NCBI GenBank assembly: GCA_020429185.1
Contig: JAGQLO010000001.1
Coordinates: 1,723-65,722, forward strand
Direction: 5' to 3'
Source of the DNA: Candidatus Doudnabacteria bacterium
Lineage (GTDB): Bacteria > Patescibacteriota > JABMPQ01 > JAGQLO01
DNA length: 64,000 nucleotides
In this document: piece after piece, positions 1,275 to 40,325 of the stretch
Layout of the letters: every line of letters starts with the position of its first letter
How positions within the stretch are numbered: the stretch's first letter is position 1
The notes under the pieces: generated by a model
Databases searched by the model: none
What the model saw: the letters and a program-made list of their open reading frames with translations, nothing else
What the model was told of the DNA's origin: nothing
Translations under genes and position numbers: made by a program

Positions 1275-2237
1275 CTAAAACGATTCTTTCCAGGAATAGG
1301 CACTGTGCGACCACGTCACGAGTGCTTTTATATCTTGAAACCGTGCATCCGAGGTTTCACTTCCAAAGACAACAGAAATGAGTTCATTTCCGTCGTCGTC
1401 TGATGACAAGACCACCATGCAGTATCCCGCATCATCTGTGAAGCCTGTCTTGCCCCCAATCACACGAGGATAAGCACTCTTGAGCAACTCATTTGTTGAG
1501 ACGACTGTTCGCACATCCTCTGCATTCTGAACCTGTGCTGAGTATCCAGATGTTTCGATCGCCTCTAAGAATGCTGGCTCGTCGAGCGCAACATCAAACA
1601 ATCGAGCAATATCAACAACCGAAGTCTGATGTCCGTCCTGATCGAGGCCCGTAGGATTCTTGTATGCAGTATGAACCATGCCGAGATCCGATGCCGTTTC
1701 GTTCATACGCGCAACAAACGCGTCAACACTCCCCGCTGTTGAAACGGCAAGTTGCACCGCCGCATCGTTCCCAGAAGCAACAAGTGCGCCCGTAAGCACA
1801 TCACCAAAACGAAGTTCATCCCCTTCCTGCAACTGCATCGATGCACCCGGCATCGCAGCTGCCTGAGAACTAACAACAATCGTGTCATCTAGATTGACAC
1901 CGCTTTGCAGTGCCACAAGGGCTGTCATCACCTTTGTAATACTTGCAGGCGCCCGAACAACCTCTGGCGATTTTTCAAACAACACTTCCCCACTACGACG
2001 ATCTACAACTAACGCCGACTGTGCGGTTATAACAGGCCCAAGACTTTCAGATACCTTTGTAGGAGCAAAGAACGAGCGCTCCTCCTCGACAAACCCAGAG
2101 CCACCACCCTCAATAGAATCTGTTGACTCCCTCACGAGAAGCACATCACTGACTTGAGGCTCAAGAGAAGCCTGAAGATCCGCCTCGATCGAGGCGGCAA
2201 ATGTCAGAACAGTGGCGAGTAAGAGTTCAGCGAGCAT
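1275..2237 (-). CDS. D-alanyl-D-alanine carboxypeptidase (S11 / PBP5-like)
   Basis: SxxK (SITK) and SGN motifs of serine DD-peptidases; N-terminal signal-like segment. Confidence 0.75.
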   Translation of the reverse strand: MLAELLLATVLTFAASIEADLQASLEPQVSDVLLVRESTDSIEGGGSGFVEEERSFFAPTKVSESLGPVITAQSALVVDRRSGEVLFEKSPEVVRAPASITKVMTALVALQSGVNLDDTIVVSSQAAAMPGASMQLQEGDELRFGDVLTGALVASGNDAAVQLAVSTAGSVDAFVARMNETASDLGMVHTAYKNPTGLDQDGHQTSVVDIARLFDVALDEPAFLEAIETSGYSAQVQNAEDVRTVVSTNELLKSAYPRVIGGKTGFTDDAGYCMVVLSSDDDGNELISVVFGSETSDARFQDIKALVTWSHSAYSWKESF

Positions 2238-3030
2238 CCTTTGTCGTAAGCGAGCTAATACGTTTCCAATTTCGAATAATGAGAACTACGGCCACGATCA
2301 CGAATACAAGTGACACGTATTGAGAAATCGTAAGACCAGCATAGCGAGGGTCTGCATACGCGCCATCAACAGCACGCGTAAAGTCGAGCACGAACCGACC
2401 AACGCCATACCCGAGCAGATAGATCCATGCCACTGCGCCTTGAATCTTGTGAAACAATGGTTTCTTTCGAGCCCAGAGCATCAGCAGAAGTAGGACAAAG
2501 TTCAGTACAACGAGATACTGCGCAACAGGATGCCGCACAACGCCATCCGGCCACTCAATACCCCACGGAACGTCGGTTGCAGATCCCGGATGATCATTGA
2601 TCAAACAACAACCACAACGACCAACGGTGAGCCCTAGCGCAAGCGCAGGAGCCAGAAGGTCGGCCAAACGCCAAAAGCTGATAGTTAAGCGTTTTCGCAC
2701 AAATAGGATACCAACCGGCAGCGCTCCCAGCAAACCACCCAAAAAGACCAGTCCTCCGTCCCAAACATAGAAAACTTCGATAGGATTCGAGGAGTATTGT
2801 GACCAAAACAGCAATACGTACGCCAACCGGGCACCAACCATCGACGCCACAAAAATCCAGAAAAAAAGTGATGAAACGTCTTTTTCATCCAATTTTTCCT
2901 CCTTTCCCAACTTCAAGAGCAACAACGATCCAGCAATAAATCCAAGAGCTACAAGAAGTCCCCATACGTAAATCGTGACAGGCCCAAGCGAAATCGTTGT
3001 AAATTCAACGTACGGAAACATACAAATCAA
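2227..3030 (-). CDS. lgt: Prolipoprotein diacylglyceryl transferase
   Basis: Lgt-like multi-TM protein with a G-rich signature (WDGGLVFLGGLLGA). Confidence 0.8.
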   Translation of the reverse strand: MICMFPYVEFTTISLGPVTIYVWGLLVALGFIAGSLLLLKLGKEEKLDEKDVSSLFFWIFVASMVGARLAYVLLFWSQYSSNPIEVFYVWDGGLVFLGGLLGALPVGILFVRKRLTISFWRLADLLAPALALGLTVGRCGCCLINDHPGSATDVPWGIEWPDGVVRHPVAQYLVVLNFVLLLLMLWARKKPLFHKIQGAVAWIYLLGYGVGRFVLDFTRAVDGAYADPRYAGLTISQYVSLVFVIVAVVLIIRNWKRISSLTTKDAR

Positions 3031-4598
3031 AATCCACCATCTTGTAAAAACTTCACAAACATACGCAACGTCAACACGTGCAACGGGGCATTATCGTCGG
3101 TAAACACACGAACATCCGGATCGTACGAAACAAGCTGTGCCGTAGTCACAACACGAGAAAGCTCTTGAAGTTCTGCAGGAACAGAGTCAACGTAACGAGT
3201 TCCCTCATAGGGATCAAACGATCCATCCGTCGCAATGAGCATTTTATTGTGAAAGCCCGGAACTTGACCGACATACGTACGATCAAACACGCTCGCGAGC
3301 GTGTTTTGCATTCCAAGCGCCAACTCTGAATCAGAAGCGAGCGTCACAACATTCATAGCAACAACACCTTCAGGTTCCAAATGAGCCCGCGCCTCCTCAA
3401 AAAATTCTTGCGTCGCAAGCTCTGGGGGCGCAGTCGTCTCGTTCTGAAATGCGTCGACATAGATAAAGTCGTACAGCGTATCTACATCCTGCAGAAACGA
3501 ACGCCCGTCGGAGACATGTACCTCTAACGATTCAATGTCGTCCAACGCAAAGTGTGTTCGAGCCAAACGAACCATTTCTGGGTCAATTTCAACCCCATCG
3601 ATATGCAGCCTTATCGAAGGATCAAGTGCTGCCTCCAACGCACGCGGTCCAGAACCACCCGCAAGTCCAAGTGACAACACGCGAATGTGCTTATCTTCTG
3701 GCGGATCTTGCAATAGCGGAACCAAGGCAAAGATATCTGTGTAATCTCCCGCATAAGGAGTGGAAGGATCCCATGACGACTGCACCCCAAGACCTTCGTT
3801 CACGCGCAATTGTCTGACTCCTTCTTCCGTTTCCACGACAGCAATGTACTGCAAGAACGACTCCGTCTCATCGATCACACCTTCGCGTGCCAATACAGGC
3901 GAAAGAGAAGGTGTTGCAAACAGCACGACCAGCAATACAGCGACAACGCTTGCAGCTCGCTTTCCCCACGTTTGAATCAAGCCAGGGACAACAAGCAGAA
4001 GCAACACAACGCCAAGCGAGACAAATAGTAACCGAGTTCCAAGCAGCGGCAGCAACACGAGAGGACCCACGAACACACCGATTAAGCTTCCAATCGTAGA
4101 AATGGTATAGACCCGTCCAGCTGTTTGCCCCACATGATTCTCAGCTTCCGATCGCTGAAGCATGGAAATCACATAAGGCGAGGTCATGCTCAACAACACC
4201 ATCGGCAAGGCAAGTGAAAGCATCATCACGACAAAGGTAGCAATCAGGCGACCAGCGCTCACACTCCCCGTCAAGGCTCCAAACAAGGTGGCAGTTGGGA
4301 AAAGCCACGCAGCCAAAAATGGTACGAATGCAATCAGAATTGCACCGACCAACAACCACAGTAACAACGGCCTCATCGACTCAGATCGATCTGCCAAACG
4401 ACCGCCTATTGAGTACCCAACAGCAAGCGCTGCAAGAACAACTCCAATGACAGACGTCCAAACCAACAACGAGGTTCCAAAGGCAGGGGCCAGCAGCGGC
4501 GTCGCAGAAAGTTCTGCAGCTGTGATAATCACCCCATCTGTAAAGGCGAGCGCATACGCATACCAAGGACGCACAGAACGTTGAATGCTCTTATTCAT
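3027..4598 (-). CDS. Fused membrane domain / spermidine synthase-like aminopropyltransferase (COG4262-like)
   Basis: N-terminal multi-TM region followed by a class I methyltransferase/spermidine-synthase-like fold (LSLGLAGGSG ... FIYVDAF). Confidence 0.65.
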   Translation of the reverse strand: MNKSIQRSVRPWYAYALAFTDGVIITAAELSATPLLAPAFGTSLLVWTSVIGVVLAALAVGYSIGGRLADRSESMRPLLLWLLVGAILIAFVPFLAAWLFPTATLFGALTGSVSAGRLIATFVVMMLSLALPMVLLSMTSPYVISMLQRSEAENHVGQTAGRVYTISTIGSLIGVFVGPLVLLPLLGTRLLFVSLGVVLLLLVVPGLIQTWGKRAASVVAVLLVVLFATPSLSPVLAREGVIDETESFLQYIAVVETEEGVRQLRVNEGLGVQSSWDPSTPYAGDYTDIFALVPLLQDPPEDKHIRVLSLGLAGGSGPRALEAALDPSIRLHIDGVEIDPEMVRLARTHFALDDIESLEVHVSDGRSFLQDVDTLYDFIYVDAFQNETTAPPELATQEFFEEARAHLEPEGVVAMNVVTLASDSELALGMQNTLASVFDRTYVGQVPGFHNKMLIATDGSFDPYEGTRYVDSVPAELQELSRVVTTAQLVSYDPDVRVFTDDNAPLHVLTLRMFVKFLQDGGF

Positions 4599-4660
4599 AA
4601 GAAAAGTCTATCAAATTTTCCGCGATCCAAATACGAACCACATCGCCCACCAAAACAGAT

Positions 4661-5629
4661 CTAGTGAGAACGCACTGGCGAAACCGGATCCTTTCCTTCA
4701 AGCACCTCGACAATATTCTGCGCGGCTAACTTCGACATCTCTGTACGCGCTTCAATCGTTGCGCTCGCAATATGCGGGGTAAGCACAACATTTTCCAAGT
4801 CAGTCAGTCCTGGAGCAAGCTGAGGCTCATGTTCAAACACATCTAGCGCCGCTCCAGCAATCTGCTTTGTTTGCAACGCCTCTACGAGTGCAGTCTCATC
4901 AATCACAGGACCACGTGCCGTGTTAATCAAAAAGGCAGTTGACTTCATCTGTTTTAGCGCTTCAGCATCAATCAGATGATGTGTTTCATCTGTGAGCGGA
5001 ACATGAATCGAAACAAAATCAGAACAGGCTAGTAACTCCTCGAGTGGAAGTTGTTTCGCTCCAAATTCTGTATCAAACTGCTCGTTTGGTTTTGTATTCG
5101 TATACTTTACTAGCATGTTGAATCCTTCGTGTGCAATTTTGGCAGTGGTGTACCCAATACGACCCGCCCCCACAATGCCAATTGTCTTTTTATGAAACTG
5201 ATTTCCGATAAACAGATTTGGCTTCCAGCCCTCATACTTTCCGGCACGGGTAAATGCATCTGCCTGCACGATCTGATTTGTGACCGCCATCATGAGCGCA
5301 ATCGCATGCTCAGCAACTGTCTGCGTCAACACGCCAGGTGTATTTGTGACGACCACATTGCGTTCAGCTGCAGCCTCTAAATCAATATTGTCGTATCCAA
5401 CTGCGTAGTTCGCGACGATCTTCAGTTGTGCGCCAGCCGTATCCAACACCTCCGCATCAATCGTCTCCGTAAGAAGTGGAAGGATAGCGTCAACTCCCCT
5501 CACACCCTCAAGAAGCGCTTCGCGCTCAATGACATCTTCTTGTGAAGCTACCGTCACGTCATGACCCGCTTCACGAAGCATCTCCAGTCCTTCGACTGGG
5601 ATCTCATGTGTTACAAACACCTTTGCCAT
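4661..5629 (-). CDS. D-isomer-specific 2-hydroxyacid dehydrogenase (glycerate/hydroxypyruvate reductase-like). Start set at MAKVFVTHE.
   Basis: NAD-binding GIVGAGRIG and the catalytic region typical of the 2-HADH family. The upstream extension to 5761 looks non-coding. Confidence 0.8.
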   Translation of the reverse strand: MAKVFVTHEIPVEGLEMLREAGHDVTVASQEDVIEREALLEGVRGVDAILPLLTETIDAEVLDTAGAQLKIVANYAVGYDNIDLEAAAERNVVVTNTPGVLTQTVAEHAIALMMAVTNQIVQADAFTRAGKYEGWKPNLFIGNQFHKKTIGIVGAGRIGYTTAKIAHEGFNMLVKYTNTKPNEQFDTEFGAKQLPLEELLACSDFVSIHVPLTDETHHLIDAEALKQMKSTAFLINTARGPVIDETALVEALQTKQIAGAALDVFEHEPQLAPGLTDLENVVLTPHIASATIEARTEMSKLAAQNIVEVLEGKDPVSPVRSH

Positions 5630-5631
5630 AC

Positions 5632-6621
5632 CTAGAATGTTACTTCTTCTGGTCGAAACTCGGGCTCTGCCGCGTGCCACGTTTCCATTTGTTCCTTGGT
5701 CAACAAACCTGCGTGTGGACCAACGTACTGCACCACAGACGCCCCGTTGAGCGACCCCCACGTAAGCGCATCAGCAAACGACTTCCCATGATAAAGCGCG
5801 GAGATAAAGGCAGTTCCATACGAATCACCCGCGCCCGTTCGCTCCACGGGCGGTAATGGATGTGCGTCTTGATGAAACATTTTCTCGCCATCATACGCCC
5901 AAGAACCATTCATTCCATCAGTCACAACAGCTACACCACGAACGGTTTCTTTTAGTTTCTTACAAAGTTCTGGAACGTCTAGCGGCTGATTATTGTTCAC
6001 AAGTAACTGCGCCTCTTCCTTGTTTACAAAAAACGCATCTGTCAGTGCAATCAAAGGCTTAAGAGTGTCAAAGCCCGCTTTAAGCTGGTGAGTACCAGGA
6101 TTAAACCCAAGCTTAATGTTTGTTCCAGTTAACTTCTCCAGCAGCTGCGCGTGCATGCCCTCATGCCCCTCGCCAACAGATGTGAGATACACCCATTCTG
6201 GATCACCAATATCCGGCAAGTCATACTCTCTCTTCTCGTGATACACCAAGATCGTTCGTTCTGCGCGGAAATTGAGAATCGCCGAATAGTTCGAGCCGCG
6301 CTTCGTATCAACCTGGATAAAATTCGAACCCACACCCTCGCGATCATATGTCTTCTCGATTGCCTCCCCAACAGCATCATCCCCTACAATTGTATAGATC
6401 GCAGAGCGAAGCCCGAGACGACGTGAACCAATCGCATTGTTTGAAGCATTTCCACCGATGAGATCATCAACACTTGTCACTGGAATCTTATCTGCATAAC
6501 GCAACGTCAACATGCAGTTCTCCTTATCGATGTCACACAGGACACTCGCATCATCAATTCCAATGAAGACATCTTGAGTCGTATCTCCAATGGAGACGAT
6601 GTCAAAGTTGTGTTCAGTCAT
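5632..6621 (-). CDS. PfkB-family carbohydrate/nucleoside kinase (ribokinase-like)
   Basis: C-terminal GAGDSYGTAF PfkB signature. Confidence 0.7.
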   Translation of the reverse strand: MTEHNFDIVSIGDTTQDVFIGIDDASVLCDIDKENCMLTLRYADKIPVTSVDDLIGGNASNNAIGSRRLGLRSAIYTIVGDDAVGEAIEKTYDREGVGSNFIQVDTKRGSNYSAILNFRAERTILVYHEKREYDLPDIGDPEWVYLTSVGEGHEGMHAQLLEKLTGTNIKLGFNPGTHQLKAGFDTLKPLIALTDAFFVNKEEAQLLVNNNQPLDVPELCKKLKETVRGVAVVTDGMNGSWAYDGEKMFHQDAHPLPPVERTGAGDSYGTAFISALYHGKSFADALTWGSLNGASVVQYVGPHAGLLTKEQMETWHAAEPEFRPEEVTF

Positions 6622-6631
6622 ACCAATTCAG

Positions 6632-7624
6632 TTAGTTCTTGCGCGCAGCAACAGCTTTTGCTGCTTCTATGATATCAGCTGCCGTCATTCCGTATTTCTC
6701 TAACAGTTCCGTGGGTTCGCCTGACTCACCAAAACTATCTGGCATTCCAACGCGCTGCATGGGAGTCGGAAGATGTTCTGAAAGCACCTCAGCAACGGCA
6801 CCGCCCAACCCACCAGTCACCTGGTGTTCTTCAACCGTCACAACAGCGCCTGTCTTCTTTGCAGACGCAACAACAGATTCAACATCAAACGGCTTGATCG
6901 TATGAAGATTGATCACCTCCAGCGATAACTCGCCTTCCAGTATGTTCGCGGCAAGCAAAGCCTCGTGCACAAGCGGACCACACCCTATGACAGTCACGTC
7001 TGTCCCCTCGGTGAGAACTTGCGCCTTCCCAATCTCAAACGGAGTCTCCTCTGTTGTAAAGACCGGAGTCTTCTCTCGTGCAAATCGTAGATATACTGGA
7101 CCATCGATTGCATATGCAGCCTCAGTTGCTTGTTTCGTCTGAATGGCGTCACAGGGAGCAAGAACCGTCATTCCCGGAAGCACGCGCGTCAATGCAATAT
7201 CTTCCATAGCCTGATGTGTTGCCCCATCAGGACCTACAGAAATTCCTGTATGAGCCCCTGCAATCTTTACATTCGTATTATTGTAGGCGATCGAAATACG
7301 CACTTGGTCCCAGTTGCGTCCAGGACAAAACACTCCGTACGTTGAAATGAACGGGACTTTTCCTTCTTTCGCCATACCCGCGGCAAGTACGGCCATGTTC
7401 TGCTCCGCAATTCCAACTTGTACGAACCGCTCGGGAAACTTCTCTTTGAAATATCCTGCACGTGTAGAATCTGTAAGGTCTGCACACAGCACTACAACAT
7501 CTTCATGCTGTGCACCAAGCGAAACAACTCCCTCACCAAATCCATTCCGAGTCGGCACTTGCTCAAGCTTACTCACGTCAAACGCGTCTGCAGACAACTT
7601 TAATTGAGGATTGAGTTTCGGCAT
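6632..7624 (-). CDS. Transketolase, C-terminal subunit (split tkt)
   Basis: Similar to the transketolase pyrimidine-binding and C-terminal domains. Confidence 0.85.
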   Translation of the reverse strand: MPKLNPQLKLSADAFDVSKLEQVPTRNGFGEGVVSLGAQHEDVVVLCADLTDSTRAGYFKEKFPERFVQVGIAEQNMAVLAAGMAKEGKVPFISTYGVFCPGRNWDQVRISIAYNNTNVKIAGAHTGISVGPDGATHQAMEDIALTRVLPGMTVLAPCDAIQTKQATEAAYAIDGPVYLRFAREKTPVFTTEETPFEIGKAQVLTEGTDVTVIGCGPLVHEALLAANILEGELSLEVINLHTIKPFDVESVVASAKKTGAVVTVEEHQVTGGLGGAVAEVLSEHLPTPMQRVGMPDSFGESGEPTELLEKYGMTAADIIEAAKAVAARKN

Positions 7625-20821: not shown

Positions 20822-22681
20822 CTACTGTTCATCTTCCGCAGTGTCAAGCACAACATCCACCTTTCCAGGCACACGCGGCACATGCTCTACCCAAAACGGC
20901 CAAAATGCCACACGAGCGGCAGCAACGCCGTATTGATCAAAAAGCAAATGCTGCACTTCTTCAGCCGTTTTTCCCTGTAACTGAGCGGAAATTCCCTCTT
21001 CAGGAAGTAGAACAACGACGTCACGATCCATCTGCACATCAAGTTCAAGCACCTCTTCAGTGGTATCGTAAGAAGCTAACGAGAACGTCACCCCTGAAAA
21101 TGTCTTGTCGATAAATGCACGCCCTTCAGGTAGCCTTGGTTGCAACTGTGCAAAAACAGTAGACCGCAAATCCTCTTCTCGATAGGCCAATGTTCTTGCG
21201 GTTACCAACAACTCAAGCTCAAAATCTTCGCGTGCATCTCCCACATCTCCAGTAGAACGCACTTCTATTACATCCGTTCGCAGCGCCTCTTCAAGTACAG
21301 CCTCACCTTCAGCAACCTGCGCACGCAACGACTCAGCTGCAATCGTAACCGCCTCCTCCTTCATGATTGCCACCGCCGCATCCATGTCCTGCTGAGAGAT
21401 AATTCGCTCACCAATTCCAGCATTCGTCCCACCTGTAAACGGTGTGACGCTTTTTCCTGTCATCTTCTCTTGAATAGCAGGCGCCAAACCTGGAATGGTA
21501 AAGGATGTGGGTTCCATATTGTAGTCAGAACCAGGTTGATCAGCCTCCACCTCAACTGTAATCGTTGTCGGAATCAACTCTCCTTCATCACTTACGTCCA
21601 TGCCAGGCACGACAGCATGTTCAATCAGACGAAAGAGTGTTCCATCTTTTGCAAGAAACCGCGTCGTCGCCACGAGTGGTTGCGGAGCCGCAGAATAAGC
21701 GTTTGTAATCGTCACCTCTCCACGTGCCTTTGTTCCCTCTTCTGTTGTGACACCTGTAGCAGCAAAAGAGCGTTTCGGACTCACCTCTTCTACTGCAATA
21801 GGAACACCAGGCACGACACCCGTTGTTGCGTCCATAGCAGAAGCGGAGGCAGAAAGCTGGACGCGCAACTCTTCTTCAAAAGGCTCTCGCTGTGGCTGCA
21901 CAGTAACGGTCGCAGAGGGAAGAACCCACAACAACACACCTCCACCAACAAGGACAGCAATAACCAAGGCGGCAATAACGGCAAAACGTGTCATTCGTGG
22001 CAGCAACGAAACCTTCTGAGGAGCTGGAGAAGACCGACGTAGCACAGAGGCTGATTGCGCGTGTCGTACAGAATGATCTTTCTTTCGTGAATCTTCCCGC
22101 ACAACAAGTTTTTCTTCAGTGGGTTCCACGACGTCCACATCGGAAGCTTCGTATACTCCCTTACTCGAAGTTGCCACTACATCAGAAACAACTGGATCAG
22201 GCAGCGGCGACATTTCAGAAACAACTTCCTGCTGATCAGCCTCATCCAGATGACGCTCTTCCGCCTCATCAACTTCTTCCAGGTCTGAAGCATCGTCTTG
22301 TACCTCATCCGAAACAGCTTTCACGGGAATAGAACGCATCGTAAAATCACGCGGCACTTGTGCTTCCGACTGTTCGCCCACCTCATCAGGAGAAGGAGCC
22401 TGCTCTTCTTCCACGGTTGGATCTAGCTCTTCCGGAACTTCGCTTTGGGCCGTCAATCCAGCCTCAGTAGCAAGATGGCGAATAACCGGATCGGATGTAA
22501 CCAAAGAAAGCTGCAACCCAAGCTTTTGGGACTCACGCTGCAGCAGCTTTAGATTGACAAGGCTCTGCGCCAACATTGAACCTCGCGGTAAGACGAGCAC
22601 AACATCGTCAGACTCCGCATGACGAAACCGATCCACGATATCGGTTATCTCATCTTCGATTTCTGAGTAAAGAAGTTCCAT
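20822..22681 (-). CDS. Hypothetical single-pass membrane protein: STAS-like N-domain, acidic linker, TM, about 365-aa extracytoplasmic domain
   Basis: The N-terminal segment (DVVLVLPRGSMLAQS..LVNLKLLQRESQKLGLQLSLV..DPVIRHLATEAGL) follows the STAS/SpoIIAA hydrophobic pattern. A TM helix lies at about residues 230-252. The gene sits immediately downstream of ftsA. Confidence 0.4.
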   Translation of the reverse strand: MELLYSEIEDEITDIVDRFRHAESDDVVLVLPRGSMLAQSLVNLKLLQRESQKLGLQLSLVTSDPVIRHLATEAGLTAQSEVPEELDPTVEEEQAPSPDEVGEQSEAQVPRDFTMRSIPVKAVSDEVQDDASDLEEVDEAEERHLDEADQQEVVSEMSPLPDPVVSDVVATSSKGVYEASDVDVVEPTEEKLVVREDSRKKDHSVRHAQSASVLRRSSPAPQKVSLLPRMTRFAVIAALVIAVLVGGGVLLWVLPSATVTVQPQREPFEEELRVQLSASASAMDATTGVVPGVPIAVEEVSPKRSFAATGVTTEEGTKARGEVTITNAYSAAPQPLVATTRFLAKDGTLFRLIEHAVVPGMDVSDEGELIPTTITVEVEADQPGSDYNMEPTSFTIPGLAPAIQEKMTGKSVTPFTGGTNAGIGERIISQQDMDAAVAIMKEEAVTIAAESLRAQVAEGEAVLEEALRTDVIEVRSTGDVGDAREDFELELLVTARTLAYREEDLRSTVFAQLQPRLPEGRAFIDKTFSGVTFSLASYDTTEEVLELDVQMDRDVVVLLPEEGISAQLQGKTAEEVQHLLFDQYGVAAARVAFWPFWVEHVPRVPGKVDVVLDTAEDEQ

Positions 22682-22685
22682 ACGA

Positions 22686-24053
22686 TTACGCTGTTTGCAG
22701 AAGACGAACGGCTCGTCGCACTACAGAAGAAAATTCATCCGAAGGCAACAACACTTCCCGAATCGCCTGAGAGGCAAGTCCAAGTGGCGTCACATCCTCC
22801 TGTCCCACAAGAAGTCCCGTCGAGTCACTCATCAGCACCACATCTTGTGGAGACATAAAGTGAATGTTTGGGGGCCGCGAGAACGGAAGGCGCTCAACGA
22901 AGTCAGGATCCATTAACACTTCTTTCATTCCTGGAAGCTTGGAACCTCCACCACAAAGCAATACACGACTTGGCAGAGGTTCTGTCTTTGAAAACTCTTC
23001 CAGAGCAAGAGCAACTCCTTCACGCCAGACCGAAAGATCGCCATCTACTTCGCGTCGAACACGCTCCGCTGACGAAGAAGGCAACATGTTTTCTGAATAC
23101 TTGATTTTGGTCTCTTCAGCCTCTTCAAACGGAAGGTCAAGCGCCTGTGACACACGCCGGGTAAACGCACGCCCGCCTATACCAAACATTTTCGTGCCCT
23201 CAATGACCCCACCACGCACAACTGCGACATCCGTTGTGCCACCACCCACATCAATAAAAATTGCGGAAAACTCCAACTGCTCTCCAACTCCCACAGAAGT
23301 CGCCACCGCATACGGCTCCGCTGTAACGGAGAGAAGATCAAGATCGAGTTGCTCAGCAATGCTTTCTAATGCACCAATATGCACCAACGGTGCATACGCA
23401 TTAAAGATAGAAAGAGCGACATCCTTTCCCTGGAAACCAACGGGTTGTGTGACGCGATATCCGTCGATGCGCACATCCACCACCGAACCCGTAATCAATC
23501 GCACATCGATACCCTGCTGACCTGTTTCACGGACGAGTTGTTGCTTCACTCGCTCAAGTGCACGCCACTGCACCTTATGCACGATGTTCTTCAACTCGGC
23601 TGCATCAATCTTCTGTTCTGGCTTCAATCGTTCATAGCTCACCGTGGTCGTCATTCCTTTTACGAGTTCACCTGCCATCCCTAACACCACTTGAGTTGGA
23701 CGCACTCCTGCTCGCTCGGAAGCCTCAAAAATGGCGCGCTCACAAACCTGTACAACAGCAGCAATATCTCCAACGGCTCCCGCATGCATCGCCCCTAGCG
23801 GCTGCGCCGCGCGACCCGATCCAATCACAACTCCTTCACCTGTCTCTTCATCCACTTCAAAGACCAAAGCCTTTACGACTTCGGTTCCAATATCTAGCGC
23901 GAGATACGATCCGTTTACCGGACCGCTCCGCTTGAACTTTCCAAATAAGGACACAGAAGAATGACAACGAATTGCGAGTGAAGTGTAGCAAACAACACGC
24001 AACAACATCTCTGGATAAAATCGACAGAAGGCAAGAGATTTCTGATCGAACAC
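22686..24053 (-). CDS. ftsA: Cell division protein FtsA (actin-like ATPase). The N-terminal boundary is uncertain and the real start is probably downstream of 24053.
   Basis: LALDIGT phosphate-1 motif, a DVGGGTTDVAV phosphate-2 motif followed by AEETKIKY, and a C-terminal amphipathic tail. Confidence 0.7.
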   Translation of the reverse strand: MFDQKSLAFCRFYPEMLLRVVCYTSLAIRCHSSVSLFGKFKRSGPVNGSYLALDIGTEVVKALVFEVDEETGEGVVIGSGRAAQPLGAMHAGAVGDIAAVVQVCERAIFEASERAGVRPTQVVLGMAGELVKGMTTTVSYERLKPEQKIDAAELKNIVHKVQWRALERVKQQLVRETGQQGIDVRLITGSVVDVRIDGYRVTQPVGFQGKDVALSIFNAYAPLVHIGALESIAEQLDLDLLSVTAEPYAVATSVGVGEQLEFSAIFIDVGGGTTDVAVVRGGVIEGTKMFGIGGRAFTRRVSQALDLPFEEAEETKIKYSENMLPSSSAERVRREVDGDLSVWREGVALALEEFSKTEPLPSRVLLCGGGSKLPGMKEVLMDPDFVERLPFSRPPNIHFMSPQDVVLMSDSTGLLVGQEDVTPLGLASQAIREVLLPSDEFSSVVRRAVRLLQTA

Positions 24054-24163
24054 TTTATGTCCTTCAAAGCCGTCCCATCACAGCACTACAGTCCAGAAAA
24101 AGTTGACAGCAAGTGAATTTCCTGTCATAAAAACCATATGATCGCCACATGGAAGGAGGAGCC

Positions 24164-24568
24164 ATGGCGAAGATCGACCTGCCGGAGACACCCGTTGTCT
24201 GGGTGCCGCCGGTCATTGTGCGTGAAGTGGCGGACTGGGACCTGCAACTGAGGTTCGGCGAGGCACAGAAGCCGGATCGCTTCAGTCAAGGCGTGTTCTG
24301 TCCGCTTCTGTCCCCGCTGCCGGACAGTCCCCGGGTCAGCCTACTGGTCGGACACGAGGCACTCCCGGTGGAGGGAGACGAGTGGTACCTTCTGATCATT
24401 CGAAATCCGCACCGCAATGAGATCGGTTTCGTGGCCACCTGGCAGCCGGGTACACGAAGCCTGATCATCTTGGAGCGGGAGCTGAACCTCGACGGCCCCA
24501 ACGGGTACATCCAACGGTTCCGCAGCATGTACCCCACGCAGCCCCCACGACCGTCCGCTCCGGCCTGA
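24164..24568 (+). CDS. Hypothetical protein (134 aa) encoded on a GC-rich island (about 63% GC). It is the only plus-strand gene in a roughly 14-kb minus-strand block.
   Basis: Strong SD GGAAGGAGGAG upstream of ATG(MAKIDL). The composition is clearly atypical for the locus. A weak terminator follows. Confidence 0.45.
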   Translation: MAKIDLPETPVVWVPPVIVREVADWDLQLRFGEAQKPDRFSQGVFCPLLSPLPDSPRVSLLVGHEALPVEGDEWYLLIIRNPHRNEIGFVATWQPGTRSLIILERELNLDGPNGYIQRFRSMYPTQPPRPSAPA

Positions 24569-24590
24569 ACCGCTGAGCACGGTCTTTTTT
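24569..24590 (+). terminator. Weak rho-independent terminator after the GC-rich ORF
   Basis: ACCG-ctgagca-CGGT followed by CTTTTTT. Confidence 0.25.
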
Positions 24591-24610
24591 CTTACCTAGG
24601 AACGGTCTCC

Positions 24611-26458
24611 CTAGGAACGTGATGCCAAAACCTCTTTCGCCTTCTCTCCAACGTATGCCTTGATACGGCGAATACCGGCAGAACTCGCCTGTTCTTTTGA
24701 AATTACAAACGCTCCGATTTCAGAGGTGTTCTCGACATGAGGACCTCCACAGACCTCCACAGAAAAATCTCCTACAGAATAGACTTTCACCTGATCACCG
24801 TATTTGTCTTCAAACAACCCAAGCGCTCCCTTTGCTCGAGCCTCTTCGAGTGACAGGGTTTCCCATGTCACCGGAAGATCACGTTCAATCACGTCGTTGA
24901 TAATCCGCTCTACCTCTGCAATCTGCTCAGGTGTCATCTTGTCAGGATGTGAAAAGTCGAATCGAACACGCTCAGGAGTAATGTTGCTTCCTTTCTGCTC
25001 GACATGGTCTCCAAGTACGTCACGCAACACCTTATGTAGCAAATGAGTTGCCGTGTGTCCCATTCGTGTTTCTGGTGTGTCCTCCGAAAGTCCGCCCGCA
25101 AACTTCTGTGCTGCCCCCTCACGCGACTTCGACTGATGCTGTTCAACATTCTGCTGGAACTCCTCTTCATTCACGCCGAATCCCATTTTCTCCGCCTCTT
25201 CAAATGTAAGCTCCAATGGGAATCCGTAGGTTTGATACAAGTCAAACACAAGATCTCCAGGCAGCGTTGGCTGCTTTGCTGAGCCAGCGATCAAGTCACT
25301 TCCAGCCGTCTGAGCGTGTTGTTGTAACTTCTCAATTTCCTTCTTCAAATGACGCAACCCGTTGTCGAGCGTCTTCTCAAACTTTTCTTCTTCTTTTCGC
25401 AGCTCCTCCAAAATAACTTCGCGATGCTGCTCCAATTCCGGATACACCCCCTCATACACGCCAAAGAAGACTTCCACAACTTCCTTCGACACATTCACTT
25501 CTTCTGGAATTTGTAATTTCGCCGCAAACCGAACAGCACGACGAATCAAACGTCGTAGAATGTAACCTTGGTCGACATTACTTGGACGAACCCCATCCCC
25601 CAACATAAACATGGCTGTCCGCAGGTGATCTGTCACCACACGCACCGCTTCTTCATCTTCCACTAGAGCTAGTTCCTTCACCTTGTTGTACGCATCGGCA
25701 AACAAATCCGTCTCAAAAATATGCGTTCGCCCCTGCAACGCCATCGCAATGCGCTCCAACCCCATTCCCGTGTCGACATTTTTTTGTGCGAGCGGCTTGA
25801 ACGAACCATCGTCAAGCTTTTCGTACTGCATGAACACGTTGTTCCAAATTTCCACAAAACGACCCGCCTCCGTGTCTGGACCATCGCCATTCAACGGCCC
25901 ATTACCACGATCATAAAAAATCTCCGTGTCCGGACCACATGGACCCGTCTTTCCTGGAGGTCCCCACCAGTTATCTTCTTTCCCCAGATAGAAAATGTGT
26001 GACTCTGGAACACCAAGAGATTTCCAAATCGAAGCCGATTCCTCATCACGCGGAGCGTCATTATCACCAGCAAACACAGTGACTGCCAGCTTTTCGATCG
26101 GAATATTGAGATACGCAGGAGACGTCAAAAACTCAAATGACCAACGAATCGACTCTTCCTTAAAGTAATCTCCCAACGACCAGTTTCCCAACATCTCGAA
26201 AAACGTGTCGTGCGTGTCATCTCCAACCTCTTCAATATCCTGAGTACGCACGCACTTCTGCACGTTGGCGAGTCGTTTTCCATCTGGATGTGCCTCTCCC
26301 ATCAGGTATGGCACCAATGGATGCATGCCAGCTGTCGTAAACAACACGGAAGGGTCATTTTCTGGGACAAGTGAAGCCGAAGCAATAATGGCGTGGCCAC
26401 GCTCTTTAAAGAAGTCAAGATACTTCTGTCGAATGTCTTTTGCGGAAAGTGATGTCAT
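24611..26458 (-). CDS. alaS: Alanine--tRNA ligase, short form (615 aa) lacking the C-terminal C-Ala/oligomerisation domain
   Basis: AlaRS catalytic core (KYLDFFKERGH ... FTTAGM) plus the editing-domain HTATHLLH motif. Confidence 0.9.
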   Translation of the reverse strand: MTSLSAKDIRQKYLDFFKERGHAIIASASLVPENDPSVLFTTAGMHPLVPYLMGEAHPDGKRLANVQKCVRTQDIEEVGDDTHDTFFEMLGNWSLGDYFKEESIRWSFEFLTSPAYLNIPIEKLAVTVFAGDNDAPRDEESASIWKSLGVPESHIFYLGKEDNWWGPPGKTGPCGPDTEIFYDRGNGPLNGDGPDTEAGRFVEIWNNVFMQYEKLDDGSFKPLAQKNVDTGMGLERIAMALQGRTHIFETDLFADAYNKVKELALVEDEEAVRVVTDHLRTAMFMLGDGVRPSNVDQGYILRRLIRRAVRFAAKLQIPEEVNVSKEVVEVFFGVYEGVYPELEQHREVILEELRKEEEKFEKTLDNGLRHLKKEIEKLQQHAQTAGSDLIAGSAKQPTLPGDLVFDLYQTYGFPLELTFEEAEKMGFGVNEEEFQQNVEQHQSKSREGAAQKFAGGLSEDTPETRMGHTATHLLHKVLRDVLGDHVEQKGSNITPERVRFDFSHPDKMTPEQIAEVERIINDVIERDLPVTWETLSLEEARAKGALGLFEDKYGDQVKVYSVGDFSVEVCGGPHVENTSEIGAFVISKEQASSAGIRRIKAYVGEKAKEVLASRS

Positions 26459-26498
26459 ACAAAAAGAGTACCCGCGCTACCACAGGAGTGCAACGGTA

Positions 26499-26777
26499 CT
26501 AATAGTCTTCTTCTACCTCAGGGTCATCCTGGGCCTCAGGCTCCTCTTCATCTCCTTCGATAGATTCCATAACGGCAAGACGCTCGTCTTCACGTTTTAA
26601 GCGATCGATCTGCGACTCGAGATCATTCACTTCACCATCAAGCAGCTCTTCTTTTCGCTGCAATTCCTTCAATTGCGTTCGAAGAGCCGTAAGTTCTTTT
26701 GAACGACGATCTAATTCGTCGTTCAACTCTTCAATTTCCTCTTGGCGTTGGCGAGCTGGATCAGAAAAGTCTGGCAT
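26499..26777 (-). CDS. Small acidic coiled-coil protein (hypothetical)
   Basis: Heptad-like E/K/L-rich sequence of 92 aa. Confidence 0.35.
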   Translation of the reverse strand: MPDFSDPARQRQEEIEELNDELDRRSKELTALRTQLKELQRKEELLDGEVNDLESQIDRLKREDERLAVMESIEGDEEEPEAQDDPEVEEDY

Positions 26778-26795
26778 AGATGGTAATGAATAACT

Positions 26796-27848
26796 CTAAT
26801 GTACCCTTCCACACCCAACAACGCGATCCCCTTCGTACAACACTGCTTCCTGTCCGGGTGTCACCGCACGCTGAGGAATAGAAAATTCCAACAACAGCTG
26901 GCCGTCTTGTAAAGAGCTCATCACCGCCGATTGAACCGGCTGACGATAGCGAAGCTGAACGTCGATCTGCTCAAATGAATCAGGCTCACCACCAATCCAA
27001 TGAAGTCTCTCGACAGAGGCGCTCGACACAAACAACTGCGAATCTCCCTGCACATTCGACACAAGAAGCTCATTTGTTTCCAAGCGCTTCCCAACCACAT
27101 ACCAAGGCCCATTTGGAAGCTCGATTCCCTTGCGCTGACCCAACGTATAAAACGGCAACCCATCATGCTGCCCAACAATATCGCCCGAAGACGTCACCAT
27201 GTTTCCTGGTGATTGAGGCAATCGCTCACGCAAAAACTGAGAGACATCAATGTCTCCCACAAAACACAACCCAACACTATCCTTCTTCGCAGCCGTCGAA
27301 AGGCGAAGACGCTCGGCCCGTTCACGAACCTCGGTCTTTCTAAGTTCGCCTAACGGAAACCGAATTCGCTGCAACATTTCGGTGGAAAGGCGACACAAAA
27401 AATATGACTGGTCTTTTTCTGGATCGATTCCACGAAGCAACTCTCCCCGCTCCGTCGTACGCGCATAGTGACCCGTTGCGACATGTTCAATACCAAGCCG
27501 ATCAGCGGCAGCAAGAAGCAATGGAAATTTCACGAACTCGTTACACCATACATCTGGGTTTGGTGTGAGGCCTTGCTGATACGATTTCAAAAACGGCTGC
27601 AAAACATGTTCATCATACGCAGGAGCGGCATCGATCACTTCAATACGAATACCTAGTTGAGCTGCAACGCGAATCGCATCCTGCCGATCTGTAGAAGCGG
27701 TACATCCGGACGCAACGGAGCCAGGAACATCGTGTGCCATCTGAAGATGCACACCAATAACCTCAAATCCCTCCTCAAGAAGAAGAGCTGCTGTCAGCGA
27801 GGAATCAACCCCACCCGACATTCCGACAATAATGCGTTTTGATGCCAT
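26796..27848 (-). CDS. mnmA: tRNA-specific 2-thiouridylase
   Basis: PP-loop GMSGGVDSS at the N-terminus. Confidence 0.9.
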   Translation of the reverse strand: MASKRIIVGMSGGVDSSLTAALLLEEGFEVIGVHLQMAHDVPGSVASGCTASTDRQDAIRVAAQLGIRIEVIDAAPAYDEHVLQPFLKSYQQGLTPNPDVWCNEFVKFPLLLAAADRLGIEHVATGHYARTTERGELLRGIDPEKDQSYFLCRLSTEMLQRIRFPLGELRKTEVRERAERLRLSTAAKKDSVGLCFVGDIDVSQFLRERLPQSPGNMVTSSGDIVGQHDGLPFYTLGQRKGIELPNGPWYVVGKRLETNELLVSNVQGDSQLFVSSASVERLHWIGGEPDSFEQIDVQLRYRQPVQSAVMSSLQDGQLLLEFSIPQRAVTPGQEAVLYEGDRVVGCGRVH

Positions 27849-27888
27849 GTGGCCGCAGCGTACGAGGCAGATCGCCTCACGTCAACAA

Positions 27889-28755
27889 CTACAAGACATC
27901 AGCGCCATCAGCCTCTGCAATCGTGATTTGCTGCTGTTTCGAACGCGCGTGCGGAGCTTCCACTTTCTCGCGACGAAATGCATCTTGCACACGACGTTTC
28001 ATTTCACGCTTAAAGGCCCAGTGCGCCTCCGGCTTCGTCTTCCCGAGAATAGAAATCGTCAACGCCTTCGCGTCGACATCCTTAACCCCCTGCACTCTCG
28101 GAACTTCAATCACGTCATCTGCGAATTCTTTCTCTGTCGCCATCCGCTCTCCGATGGCATCAATCATCGACTTAATCTTGTTGTAGTCTTCTTGAACATC
28201 TACCACCACATAAAAGTGCACCGCTGAAAAATCTTTTGTGTGATTACTTACAATCGTAATCTGACTATTCGGAATATGATGTTGCACTCCATCTAGATCG
28301 CGCAACACCGTACGTCGTAACGTAAACGACTCAACGCGTCCTGTGACCTCCTTTGCCTCAATCACATCCCCAACAGCAAACTGGTCTTCCAAAATGATGA
28401 ACATTCCATTAAAGAAGTCTTTCACCAAACTTTGAGCCCCAAATCCAACAGCGACACCAGCAATTCCAAATCCAGCAATAAGCGGACCAAGATCAATGTC
28501 CAACTCCCCTAAGACCAACAACAGCACAATGGCCCCCACAAGTGTAAGCGCGAGCTGTGAAAACACACGCGACAGCATGCGAATACGCTGCTCACGCTCT
28601 TTGTCATCGCGCTGACTCGCAATAGGAATCTGACGCATGGTGGCGCGAATAATACGCCTCGAAAACAAATTTGTGAGCCACGTCACCACAAGACCTCCCA
28701 AAAGAATGGCAAGAATGCGGAACCATGGCGATGTCAGAATGTGAGTTATATCCAT
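27889..28755 (-). CDS. Small-conductance mechanosensitive channel (MscS family)
   Basis: TM3 and beta-domain signature (LVKDFFNGMFIILEDQFAVGDVIE). Start set at the internal Met to avoid overlap with nth. Confidence 0.8.
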   Translation of the reverse strand: MDITHILTSPWFRILAILLGGLVVTWLTNLFSRRIIRATMRQIPIASQRDDKEREQRIRMLSRVFSQLALTLVGAIVLLLVLGELDIDLGPLIAGFGIAGVAVGFGAQSLVKDFFNGMFIILEDQFAVGDVIEAKEVTGRVESFTLRRTVLRDLDGVQHHIPNSQITIVSNHTKDFSAVHFYVVVDVQEDYNKIKSMIDAIGERMATEKEFADDVIEVPRVQGVKDVDAKALTISILGKTKPEAHWAFKREMKRRVQDAFRREKVEAPHARSKQQQITIAEADGADVL

Positions 28756-37166: not shown

Positions 37167-37793
37167 CTAGTCATAGGCGCGTGTCACCGCTACAACCTTT
37201 CCTTGAATAGTCCATTCGGAGTCAGGGTAAATATCTGGGTAATCAGGATTTTCCGCTTTGAGATAAGCAACGCCATCTTTCATCATGAAGCGTTTCACTG
37301 TGGTCTCACCATCATCGAGCAGAGCCACCACAATGTCCCCATGAGAAGGTTGCACTCCCTGGCGAACCAACACACGATCATCTTCGAGAATGCCCGCGTC
37401 ACGCATACTCTCTCCACGGACTCGCAACAGAAATGTATCTTGAAATCCTCCAACAAGATCTGCAGGCAATGTAATGTTGTCTTCAATATTTTCATCAGCG
37501 AGAACAGGAGTTCCGGCAACAACATCACCAACAAGTGGCACTGATACTGTGTCGCTCGAAAGTGACTCGCCGAGCGTATTCAATACCTCAATACCACGTG
37601 CAGAGGAGTCACGACGGATGTAGCCACCTTCTTCCAAACGTCGCAACAACTTTGCCACAGAATTCTTAGAAGAAACTCCGATAGCAGTTGCCATTTGCGA
37701 AAACGTGGGCGGAACACGTCGTTCGCGAATCTCTTCGATAATGAACTCGAGGAGATGGCGTTGTTTTGGCGTGAGGTCTGACATGTGACTCAT
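37167..37793 (-). CDS. lexA: LexA repressor
   Basis: N-terminal winged HTH; S24 peptidase with the Ser (GESM) / Lys (VKRF) dyad. Confidence 0.9.
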   Translation of the reverse strand: MSHMSDLTPKQRHLLEFIIEEIRERRVPPTFSQMATAIGVSSKNSVAKLLRRLEEGGYIRRDSSARGIEVLNTLGESLSSDTVSVPLVGDVVAGTPVLADENIEDNITLPADLVGGFQDTFLLRVRGESMRDAGILEDDRVLVRQGVQPSHGDIVVALLDDGETTVKRFMMKDGVAYLKAENPDYPDIYPDSEWTIQGKVVAVTRAYD

Positions 37794-37888: not shown

Positions 37889-38419
37889 TCAGGACATGCG
37901 CGCGGCCAACCGCTTGAGCGGTTCGGTCAGCTCGGTCAAGATCGCGGGCATCTGGCAGTGCAATACATGATCGAGATCACTACCACCCACGGAAGGAAGC
38001 GACGCACGCAACTCTCGCTGCACATCGGGGTGCAACCCAGCACCGACGACGAGACGAAGCTGCGGACCGGAACGAACGAAGTCCAGCACGTGTCTCACCG
38101 TGTAGATGTTCACGCCACCAGGTCGCTCCAACTCCTCGCCAGGACGCACCACATCCCCCACCAGAAACACCGCCTGAGAAAACAGGTGTGCGCCGCGACC
38201 GAACTGCTTGAACCGCTGCACAGTCACCTGCTCAGCACACGATCCAAGCGTTGCAAGGACGGCCGGAAACCGATCGCCCCAGGCATCGCGTGCACTCATC
38301 CAAAATAGCGTGAGCGGGCGATCCGGAAACGCCTCGACCAGCTTCTTGACGGTCACACGGAGAGCTTCGCTCCCGTGCACCACCTCGGGCAACACGAGCA
38401 ACACGGACAAATCTTCCAA
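37889..38419 (-). CDS. SulA/ImuA-like RecA-fold protein on a GC-rich island (about 60% GC), immediately upstream of lexA
   Basis: The pattern LLVLP ... RPLTLFWMSARDAW resembles the SulA LLLLP ... RWQLWLTPQQKLSREW region. About 175 aa. Probable TTG start after a GGAGG. Confidence 0.35.
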   Translation of the reverse strand: MEDLSVLLVLPEVVHGSEALRVTVKKLVEAFPDRPLTLFWMSARDAWGDRFPAVLATLGSCAEQVTVQRFKQFGRGAHLFSQAVFLVGDVVRPGEELERPGGVNIYTVRHVLDFVRSGPQLRLVVGAGLHPDVQRELRASLPSVGGSDLDHVLHCQMPAILTELTEPLKRLAARMS

Positions 38420-38507: not shown

Positions 38508-40325
38508 TTACAAATCCAGGTCGCTGGCACCACCAGAAGAATTCTGAAATGGATCAGGGACAAAAGAGGAATCATCCTGCTGAACCGTTTTTGGAGCCGG
38601 AACAGAACCCGAACGAGAAGATTGATTCTGGGAATCTCCATCCTTCTTGCCCCCCTTCCCTTTGTTGCGAGAGCGATCTTCAGAAGACGAATCAGAGGAG
38701 CCTTTTCCACCATCCTTCAATGCTTCAGCGAACGCCTTCTTAAAGGGTTGTGCGGTTGAACTAGTTCCACCATCTTTTCGTTCATTCTTTTTCTTTTGAA
38801 TCTTCTCAGCCATTCCAGTCAGATTGTTCTTGGCTGCGTTACGATTTTTTTCGGGAGAACGACGCGACTGCCCACTCCCACCTTTTCCACCACCAGAACC
38901 ACCGCGATCTCCTGAAGGACGTCCACCACGGTCGCCACCACCTGAAGAACTGCCTCCGCCACGACTGCCTTTATTGCCGCCCCCTGAATGACGTCCGCCT
39001 GAACCTCCAGATTCGCGACGTGCAGGAGAGCCACTCTCGTCATCAAATCCACTCCATCGCGCAATACGATCTTCTACCAATTCACGATTCGATCCGTATC
39101 GCTCACGCGAAACACGCATGATCGTCTCTCGGTTTCCTTGAGGGTCCCACTCAGGAGGAAGGGTGGCGGCTGAGAACGCAGAAGAAGCAACTCCACGAAT
39201 CATTAGTTTCAACATCACTTCAAATTTCGGAAGGTTCACAAGATCATTTTCTGTGAAGATTGGCTCGAATTCCTTCACCATAAACTCCGCATCGGCTGCG
39301 CCAACACGAAAAGCTACCAACGTTCCGACGTTTCCAAACACCGCATCACGCACAGGCTCTTCAAGCTGCGCAATATACTGGTGTGCCATGATCAAGCACA
39401 GGCGATACTTTCTCGCTTCCGACAGAATGTCTGCAAATGATTCCGTGGCAAAGTTCTGAAACTCGTCAACATACAAATAGAAGTCCTTTCGTTCCTCTTC
39501 GGGAATGTCAGATCGAGACATGGCTGCCAACTGAATCTTGGTGATCACCATGGCACCAAACAGTGCAGATGCGTCCTCACCAATACGACCCTTTGCAAGG
39601 TTCAACAACACAATTTTGTTGTTGTCCATGAGATTCCGCATGTCTAACGTGGACTGCGGCTGTCCCACAATATTGCGAATCAATGAAATCGAAAGGAACT
39701 GACCGACCTTGTTCTGAATAGGAGAAATCGCTTCCGCCTTCAATTTATCGGTGTACTTCGCATACTCATTCACCCAAAATGAGCGAACAACAGGATCTTT
39801 CACTTTTGTAAGCACCTCTTCGCGAAAATCATCGTCGGAAAAGATTCGCAAAATGCCCAGCAATGTAGAACCTGGATACTCCAAAAGTGCCAAGATGGCA
39901 TTTCGCAACAAATACTCCAGACGAGGACCCCAGGAATCTGCCCAAATCTTCTTAAACACCCCCACCAACCCAGCTGACACAAGGTGTCGATACCGAGGAT
40001 CAACCGCCTCCATCACATTGAATGCGATCGGAAAATCAAGATCAGCCGGATCAAAATACACGACGTCGTTCACGCGATGCGATGGCACATAATCCAACAT
40101 CAATTCGGCAAAATCACCGTGTGGATCTACGAGACAGAGGCCATTGCCAGCGTTCATGTCTGACACCACCATATTCTGCAACAACGTCGACTTCCCCATT
40201 CCCGTCTTACCAATCACATACATGTGACGCCGACGATCATCTCGCATGATGCCAAACCGCTTCGCGGCATTACGGAAGTTTGTTTGTCCGAAGACGGTCA
40301 AATCTGTGTCTTGTGCGTCTGGCAT
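38508..40325 (-). CDS. Soluble VirD4/TraG/TrwB-like type IV coupling-protein ATPase with a G/S-rich disordered C-terminal tail
   Basis: Walker A GKTGMGKST, Walker B YLYVDEFQNF, and the T4CP ARKYRLCLIMAHQYIAQL (Q..AQL) motif. No N-terminal TM. The last about 170 aa are low-complexity G/S/R/K-rich. Confidence 0.6.
   Translation of the reverse strand: MPDAQDTDLTVFGQTNFRNAAKRFGIMRDDRRRHMYVIGKTGMGKSTLLQNMVVSDMNAGNGLCLVDPHGDFAELMLDYVPSHRVNDVVYFDPADLDFPIAFNVMEAVDPRYRHLVSAGLVGVFKKIWADSWGPRLEYLLRNAILALLEYPGSTLLGILRIFSDDDFREEVLTKVKDPVVRSFWVNEYAKYTDKLKAEAISPIQNKVGQFLSISLIRNIVGQPQSTLDMRNLMDNNKIVLLNLAKGRIGEDASALFGAMVITKIQLAAMSRSDIPEEERKDFYLYVDEFQNFATESFADILSEARKYRLCLIMAHQYIAQLEEPVRDAVFGNVGTLVAFRVGAADAEFMVKEFEPIFTENDLVNLPKFEVMLKLMIRGVASSAFSAATLPPEWDPQGNRETIMRVSRERYGSNRELVEDRIARWSGFDDESGSPARRESGGSGGRHSGGGNKGSRGGGSSSGGGDRGGRPSGDRGGSGGGKGGSGQSRRSPEKNRNAAKNNLTGMAEKIQKKKNERKDGGTSSTAQPFKKAFAEALKDGGKGSSDSSSEDRSRNKGKGGKKDGDSQNQSSRSGSVPAPKTVQQDDSSFVPDPFQNSSGGASDLDL

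Follow-up and report, generated by a model that had tools for sequence, protein, structure and literature searches.

How did a small, GC-rich gene come to lie between ftsA and alaS in a bacterial genome, and is it a gene at all? The DNA analysed here, called the window throughout, is a stretch of 64,000 nucleotides of contig JAGQLO010000001.1 (positions 1,723 to 65,722). It holds a 134-codon open reading frame (ORF), ORF134, whose translation matches exactly the database entry KC925_00170 (MCA9375464.1, 'MAG: Candidatus Doudnabacteria bacterium'), and because of this identity the window is taken to be part of a metagenome-assembled genome (MAG) of a bacterium of the Candidate Phyla Radiation (CPR, or Patescibacteria). 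The segment around ORF134 is foreign in composition, inserted relative to its relatives and genuinely joined to its flanks; its reading frame has coding periodicity, and it persists in two strains. We consider it likely that the segment is a horizontally acquired, lineage-specific cassette in the alaS-ftsA spacer that encodes a small orphan protein and has not yet been ameliorated. The features that define the locus are as follows.

24143..24582, no strand: GC-rich foreign segment, from maximum-likelihood two-state segmentation and sliding GC profiles
24164..24568, plus strand: orphan ORF134, 134 aa (KC925_00170, MCA9375464.1), from translation, GC3-GC2 periodicity and codon usage
24153..24159, plus strand: Shine-Dalgarno (SD) sequence AAGGAGG, 4 nt 5' of the ORF134 ATG
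22686..23954, minus strand: ftsA, left flank (FtsA/PilM-type; Pfam FtsA 1e-17; 422-aa NCBI model and homologues)
24611..26458, minus strand: alaS, right flank, short 615-aa form (Pfam tRNA-synt_2c and tRNA_SAD)

Composition and coding signals of the island

The best two-state segmentation delimits an island of 440 bp (24143..24582) with 63.9% GC, compared with 48.6% in the flanks. The window as a whole has 49.3% GC, with a standard deviation of 3% among 300-bp windows. The island begins 21 nt 5' of the ATG, taking in the ribosome-binding site, and stops 14 nt past the stop codon. ORF134 itself has 63.5% GC, and its GC fractions at the first, second and third codon positions (GC1, GC2 and GC3) are.68,.45 and.77. 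Among 48 long native genes, GC3 is.464 ±.033 with a maximum of.547, which places ORF134 at z = 9.2. Codon choice differs in the same genes: leucine is encoded by CTG in 60% of cases in ORF134 and 13% in native genes, proline by CCG in 67% versus 27%, and glutamate by GAG in 89% versus 50%. With GC, GC3 and codon usage all computed, ORF134 is a clear outlier, and the island deviates from the resident genome in composition and codon usage, as is characteristic of a genomic islet. These values bear out the GC-rich island that an earlier note on this DNA, made from the sequence alone, had claimed at this site.

ORF134 is divergent from ftsA, from which it is separated by a 209-bp spacer of 44.5% GC, and convergent with alaS, with 42 bp between the two stop codons. 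The ftsA start is most probably the GTG at 23954, which would give the 422-aa protein. From ~16.6 to 49.8 kb, ORF134 is the sole plus-strand gene that can be identified, small ORFs in a few gaps not having been examined individually. The earlier note was thus right to describe a lone plus-strand ORF between ftsA and alaS, and the minus-strand block around it is larger than the 14 kb given there.

The same 134 aa are annotated by NCBI. Several properties suggest that ORF134 is coding sequence. The difference GC3-GC2 is.32, a value reached by 0 of 5000 shuffles, and an ATG-initiated ORF of at least 134 aa arises by chance in 27 of 5000 shuffles of the island (0.5%). The order GC3 > GC1 > GC2 is the usual coding pattern of high-GC organisms and favours the plus strand. 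The strong SD sequence that the earlier note had assigned to this ORF is indeed present (AAGGAGG, 24153..24159). At the first ORF start, a strong SD sequence occurs in 2 of 50 genes, namely ORF134 and a second GC-rich ORF in the window (ORF-B, see below), and in none of the 48 native genes; if any candidate start within 180 nt is allowed, at most 5 of these 48, whose starts are uncurated, have one. Since strong SD sequences are rare at native starts, the translation signal of ORF134 looks imported as well.

Three further elements surround the gene.

24103..24131, plus strand: possible sigma-70-type promoter, TTGACA-17 nt-CATAAA, read by eye
24134..24152, minus strand: hairpin followed by TTTTT (fold -7.5 kcal/mol, z = -1.3, modest)
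24585..24590, plus strand: T-run 3' of ORF134 without a stable hairpin before it (-4.4 kcal/mol, z = +1.3)

The two promoter-like elements (TTGACA, 24103..24108; CATAAA, 24126..24131) are situated in the AT-rich spacer and outside the GC-rich segment. A strict consensus promoter scan did not report this site, whose -10 element lacks the final T. The minus-strand hairpin at 24134..24152, beyond the island as seen from alaS, may terminate read-through from alaS.

Insertion site, junctions and strain comparison

The nearest FtsA homologue among 5.8 billion protein clusters (P0003, 80% identical) is encoded on L090, where 60 bp and no ORF separate the alaS stop from the ftsA start. In a second relative, L091 (FtsA 59% identical), the gap is 103 bp, again with no ORF in it, compared with 656 bp in the window. 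The gene order 3' of ftsA (ftsA, a ~620-aa protein, infA, rpmJ, rpsM, rpsK) is kept in the relatives. In both outgroups, ftsA and alaS are therefore adjacent without the insert, and ORF134 is absent from the syntenic position, as is typical of an islet. An alignment of the L090 spacer to that of the window gave no significant similarity, and the exact break points cannot be fixed for this reason. A scan of genome contigs carrying alaS returned 80 loci, all at most 57% identical, phylogenetically scattered and none with ftsA nearby; the scan is uninformative because alaS is too conserved.

The alaS tail after the RRIKA motif (RRIKAYVGEKAKEVLASRS*; 24620..24660) is 8-11 residues longer than in the relatives, which end in RRIKAFIGEQG* (L090, 840..880) and RRIKAILE* (L091, 2570..2606). 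Judging from these ends, the insertion may have altered the original alaS 3' end.

Nine further contigs, derived from different samples and assemblers (ENA MEGAHIT assemblies, ENA 'WANG18-1' scaffolds and the Logan assembly of SRR7638773), carry ORF134 and are 99.5-100% identical to the window. Six have both ftsA and alaS around ORF134, two have ftsA and ORF134 only, and one contains little beyond ORF134. All contigs bearing this FtsA also bear ORF134.

A more diverged strain is represented by L098 (contig JAGQLD010000169.1, GCA_020429705.1, labelled 'Andersenbacteria'), which contains the alaS-island junction. Over its alaS part, 55 of 1347 positions (4.1%) deviate from the window, and the part of the island that L098 covers has four differences in ~140 bp. 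L098 retains the last 33 codons of ORF134 in frame; its stop is TAA where the window has TGA, and a single substitution, S131P, falls in the proline-rich tail. The stop retained over the 33 codons compared, together with the periodicity and the ribosome-binding site, suggests that ORF134 is probably a real gene. The earlier note had proposed a recent horizontal acquisition. Foreign composition, codon usage, the SD sequence and the insertion relative to the relatives all support acquisition; 'recent' has to be toned down, as the insertion is not very recent: a strain diverged by ~4% already carries the island.

Across 21233..28670, the differences between the window and L001, L002, L005-L007 and L098 are clustered in tight blocks and fall mostly on third codon positions; 19 single-nucleotide polymorphisms (SNPs) in ftsA between assemblies leave the FtsA protein unchanged. 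The blocks alternate between two haplotypes ~4% apart, which suggests recombination between co-existing strains or a mosaic consensus assembly. It should also be noted that the MAG of the window ('Candidatus Doudnabacteria') and that of L098 ('Candidatus Andersenbacteria') share proteins at least 90% identical and have ~96% DNA identity in alaS. Since two so closely matching MAGs bear different phylum-level names, at least one of the two labels is wrong.

A short repeat lies just outside the island, at the alaS 3' end.

24595..24619, no strand: direct repeat CCTAGGAACG-gtctc-CCTAGGAACG, copies at 24595..24604 and 24610..24619

The sequence CCTAGGAACG occurs exactly twice, with the second copy overlapping the alaS stop, and about 1.4 such close 10-bp repeats are expected per shuffled window. 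L098 lacks window positions 24610..24618, and its alaS product ends in ...ASRDRS*, compared with ...ASRS* followed by the second repeat copy in the window. On this comparison, the repeat reflects an in-frame duplication of 9 bp at the alaS 3' end, which is polymorphic between strains and creates the stop that alaS uses in the window. It is not a target-site duplication, as the island does not lie between the two copies. The repeat described in the earlier note is thus present exactly as given; its use there as evidence of insertion does not stand. Within alaS, a 10-bp tandem repeat (GACCTCCACA x2.2, 24742..24763) encodes SVEVCGG on the minus strand and is probably coincidental.

We also considered a 16-nt inverted repeat (24023..24038 and 24633..24648, 13 of 16 positions complementary) that brackets the island together with 120 bp of spacer. 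With these ends, the native spacer next to ftsA would be 68 bp, close to the 60 bp of L090. We rejected the repeat as element termini: about one such repeat is expected by chance in this region (a rough estimate), no target-site duplication accompanies it, and the right arm falls in conserved coding sequence of alaS. No inverted repeat suitable as an attC-like palindrome was found 3' of ORF134 at this locus. Of the mobility signature of a genomic islet, neither a tRNA (searched for across the window) nor a mobility gene (among the immediate neighbours) was found.

One protein of the conserved neighbourhood 3' of ftsA is unusual in its own right. In this CPR lineage, a protein of ~560-650 aa is always located between ftsA and infA-rpmJ-rpsM-rpsK.

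20822..22681, minus strand: ~560-650-aa protein 3' of ftsA in the window; its counterparts are at 2231..4081 (L090), 3991..5664 (L091) and 5287..7251 (L097)

It weakly resembles Baseplate_J (Pfam, 8e-5) and the phage baseplate wedge family phrog_6 (1.5e-7), and a phage-baseplate-like protein is odd in a conserved neighbourhood of cell-division and ribosomal-protein genes. On the other side of the locus, between alaS and mnmA, a 92-aa coiled-coil-like ORF (26499..26777, minus strand) has only sub-threshold Pfam coiled-coil matches and is kept in all assemblies of the species. Farther away, a full-length bacterial RNase P RNA of class A is found at 60096..60528 on the minus strand (208.6 bits).

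The ORF134 protein, a second orphan and the rival readings

The ORF134 protein is predicted to be acidic (pI 5.3) and soluble, with 13% proline and a proline-rich C-terminal tail. Its grand average of hydropathy is -0.23, i.e. mildly hydrophilic overall, and reading the protein sequence revealed no hydrophobic signal peptide or membrane segment. Searches against Pfam, NCBIfam, PHROGs and PADLOC returned nothing, even at E <= 10; the homology search as a whole found nothing nameable, in agreement with the absence of a recognizable motif in the earlier note. Gene calls from the same samples in which this organism occurs are part of the databases searched, and a co-resident assembled donor is therefore not evident. 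Nothing ties the island to the high-GC host or neighbour that the earlier note had suggested as a source. No homologue in a plausible donor lineage was found across them, and because no homologue exists in any database searched, donor and protein family are not demonstrated. ORF134 is a single ORF without a co-oriented small partner gene or a match to a known family, the marks of a toxin-antitoxin or immunity system. The idea of a small toxin/immunity or host-interaction factor, raised in the earlier note, is neither favoured nor disfavoured by these observations. If a role had to be named nevertheless, it would be that of a strain-level accessory binding or immunity-type protein.

Two candidate matches were rejected. 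A PDB sequence search returned designed Kelch-repeat proteins (SAKe6) with a summed E of ~1e-4 and no single significant stretch, and we hold this match to be spurious. The second, a HMMER match in four stretches (E 2.8e-4), is to an Ig-repeat protein with a C-terminal, sorting-signal-like LPQTG motif (P0122). It covers the end of one repeat, a proline-rich linker and the start of the next repeat, and we attribute it to inflation by repeats and composition.

The window contains a second GC-rich orphan.

37889..38419, minus strand: ORF-B, orphan, 176 aa (KC925_00240), 61% GC, GC3.70 (z = 7)

ORF-B is flanked by lexA (37167..37793) and a TraG/VirD4-like ATPase gene (38508..40325), and a strong GGAGG site (GAGGAGGGGG) precedes its TTG start. 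Like ORF134, it is a single small gene without a family, GC-rich, equipped with a strong SD sequence and situated between native genes. The two protein sequences are unrelated, however, and unlike ORF134, ORF-B is on the same strand as its neighbours. It also differs in having a hairpin and T-run after its stop, although this fold is no stronger than that of shuffled sequences (-8.0 kcal/mol, z = -0.8). A further difference is that ORF-B has an orthologue, its one relative, in a sister species (L096, Logan SRR33375164). The orthologue is 87% identical and equally GC-rich, the sister species' flanking gene is 96.7% identical, and dN/dS is 0.29 for ORF-B and 0.04 for the neighbouring gene. As this comparison shows, a GC-rich orphan cassette of this lineage can persist as a gene and keep its foreign composition across a species split. 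AlphaFold2 predicts an alpha/beta fold for ORF-B (pLDDT 63), and for this model Foldseek found nothing in the PDB with an E below 0.06.

We propose the following course of events for ORF134. About 440 bp of foreign DNA, made up of the 134-codon gene with its ribosome-binding site and a short tail at the 3' end, would have been captured in the short alaS-ftsA spacer, presumably by illegitimate recombination, as no mobility signature was found. This would have occurred in an ancestor of the present species, after its split from the relative with 80% identical FtsA and before the strains diverged by ~4%. Because amelioration is slow, the island would still keep the base composition, codon usage and strong SD sequence of a high-GC donor. 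The product is most likely a real, expressed, small soluble cytoplasmic accessory protein. Transcription could start at the promoter-like site in the AT-rich spacer and run convergently with alaS. A more specific version, in which ORF134 and ORF-B were both captured from a high-GC host or neighbour of a presumably episymbiotic CPR bacterium and kept for host interaction, with ORF134 having an as yet unseen small fold, appears unlikely to us. In this version, expression of ORF134 could also be coupled to alaS and ftsA, since it lies antisense to read-through from the former and diverges from the latter.

Several observations weigh against a captured and functional gene. ORF134 matched itself alone in the 5.8 billion protein clusters, and an exhaustive HMMER search of 1.84 billion representatives returned itself and the rejected Ig-repeat match; nor was there any match in JGI metagenome contigs, IMG/VR viral contigs, plasmids or phages. 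AlphaFold2, run without an alignment, gave a pLDDT of 37, with four tentative beta strands in residues 62-107. No functional terminator follows the gene: where the earlier note saw a weak terminator, there is a T-run only (24585..24590), and 188 of 200 shuffles fold better than the best hairpin before it (-4.4 kcal/mol). An integrase, a target-site duplication and significant terminal repeats were looked for at the locus without success. The insertion is polarised by two outgroups alone; in two relatives that are more distant, ftsA is preceded by other genes, so that the alaS-ftsA junction is, by this comparison, specific to the sub-lineage. The island has no SNPs in the nine assemblies, but these were chosen for an identical protein, and the interstrain comparison of ORF134 is limited to 99 bp (24470..24568), without a full-length orthologue from which selection could be estimated.

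These points bear most on the reading that the island is a non-functional foreign scrap or the decaying remnant of a donor gene, tolerated in the spacer, with a frame that is open partly by chance because stop codons are rare in GC-rich DNA. The missing homologues and terminator and the low-confidence structure prediction fit a scrap, as does an ORF running head-on to the surrounding genes; moreover, the sole interstrain amino acid difference is non-synonymous. Yet ORF134 fills the whole GC-rich segment from a well-spaced AAGGAGG-ATG to its end, a chance ORF of this length appears in only 0.5% of shuffles, and the codon periodicity is in this very frame. In the diverged strain, the stop has been swapped for another stop, the sister island ORF-B is under purifying selection, and the segment has been kept over ~4% strain divergence even though CPR genomes are compact. 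We therefore regard a scrap as unlikely, while giving it some weight. Much less probable is a native or de novo gene that owes its high GC to amino acid composition or to a local mutation or gene-conversion bias and has been lost from the relatives. That no donor was identified, that a stretch of 64 kb has two such islands, a possible hint of an internal process, and that ORF-B holds 61% GC in two species would all suit such an origin, but the GC excess is concentrated at third codon positions (.77, where native genes reach.547 at most) and not at those that determine the amino acid. The edges of the island are sharp, strong ribosome-binding sites are otherwise rare in the genome, and the gene is absent from the alaS-ftsA junction in both relatives that have this junction.

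GC-rich islands often mark RNA genes, and this GC-rich intergenic island of ~440 nt has about the length of the RNase P RNA match of the window (433 nt). It is nevertheless highly improbable that the island is a structured non-coding RNA with an incidental ORF, as no Rfam family was found at the gathering threshold or at E <= 1 (a plant miRNA model at 20 bits being spurious), ARAGORN found no tmRNA or tRNA, and the strong three-base periodicity indicates coding sequence. The abrupt change in composition within a metagenome-assembled genome might finally raise the concern that reads of a high-GC organism were joined to a CPR contig during assembly or binning. This idea has practically nothing left in its favour: in eight of the nine assemblies, ORF134 has ftsA, alaS or both as neighbours, and six of these span ftsA-ORF134-alaS with both junctions, and L098, which belongs to another MAG, has the alaS-island junction with strain-specific SNPs on either side. 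Mis-assembly, for which the earlier note had asked that the junctions be checked, is excluded by these contigs, and the chimera is effectively refuted already. Acquisition of a cassette that encodes a small orphan protein thus remains our preferred account of the locus.

Comparison with orphan islets and cassettes

The genomes of CPR bacteria are small and streamlined, and the hosts on which these bacteria are thought to rely are for the most part unidentified. Sequence offers few clues to such partners and to what is taken from them, and the foreign genes that CPR bacteria keep are among these clues. The locus described here is a clean, bounded example, with one gene, an empty site in relatives and the insert in two strains. 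In practice, it may serve mainly as a marker or be taken into expression studies as a candidate; as long as neither donor nor function can be named, ORF134 adds little beyond one more orphan gene.

ORF134 can be compared with two kinds of known systems. Integron cassettes and elements resembling miniature inverted-repeat transposable elements (MITEs) share with the island a compact insert, a single small and often orphan ORF and a foreign composition. Unlike these, the island has no attC-like imperfect palindrome, no cassette array and no target-site duplication. The closer parallel is with the horizontally acquired ORFans and small genomic islets described for enterobacteria. Like ORF134, they are short, confined to one lineage, devoid of homologues and atypical in composition and codon usage, and they lie between housekeeping genes that are conserved, in the orientation opposite to that of the genes around them. 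In contrast to ORFan islets, the island is without a mobility gene, tRNA or flanking repeat. As a rule, classic ORFans exceed their host genome in AT content and often have links to phages, whereas ORF134 is ~14 points more GC-rich than the genome and has no phage or plasmid relative. Among acquired orphans, ORF134 is unusual only in exceeding the GC content of its host genome and in bringing its own strong ribosome-binding site.

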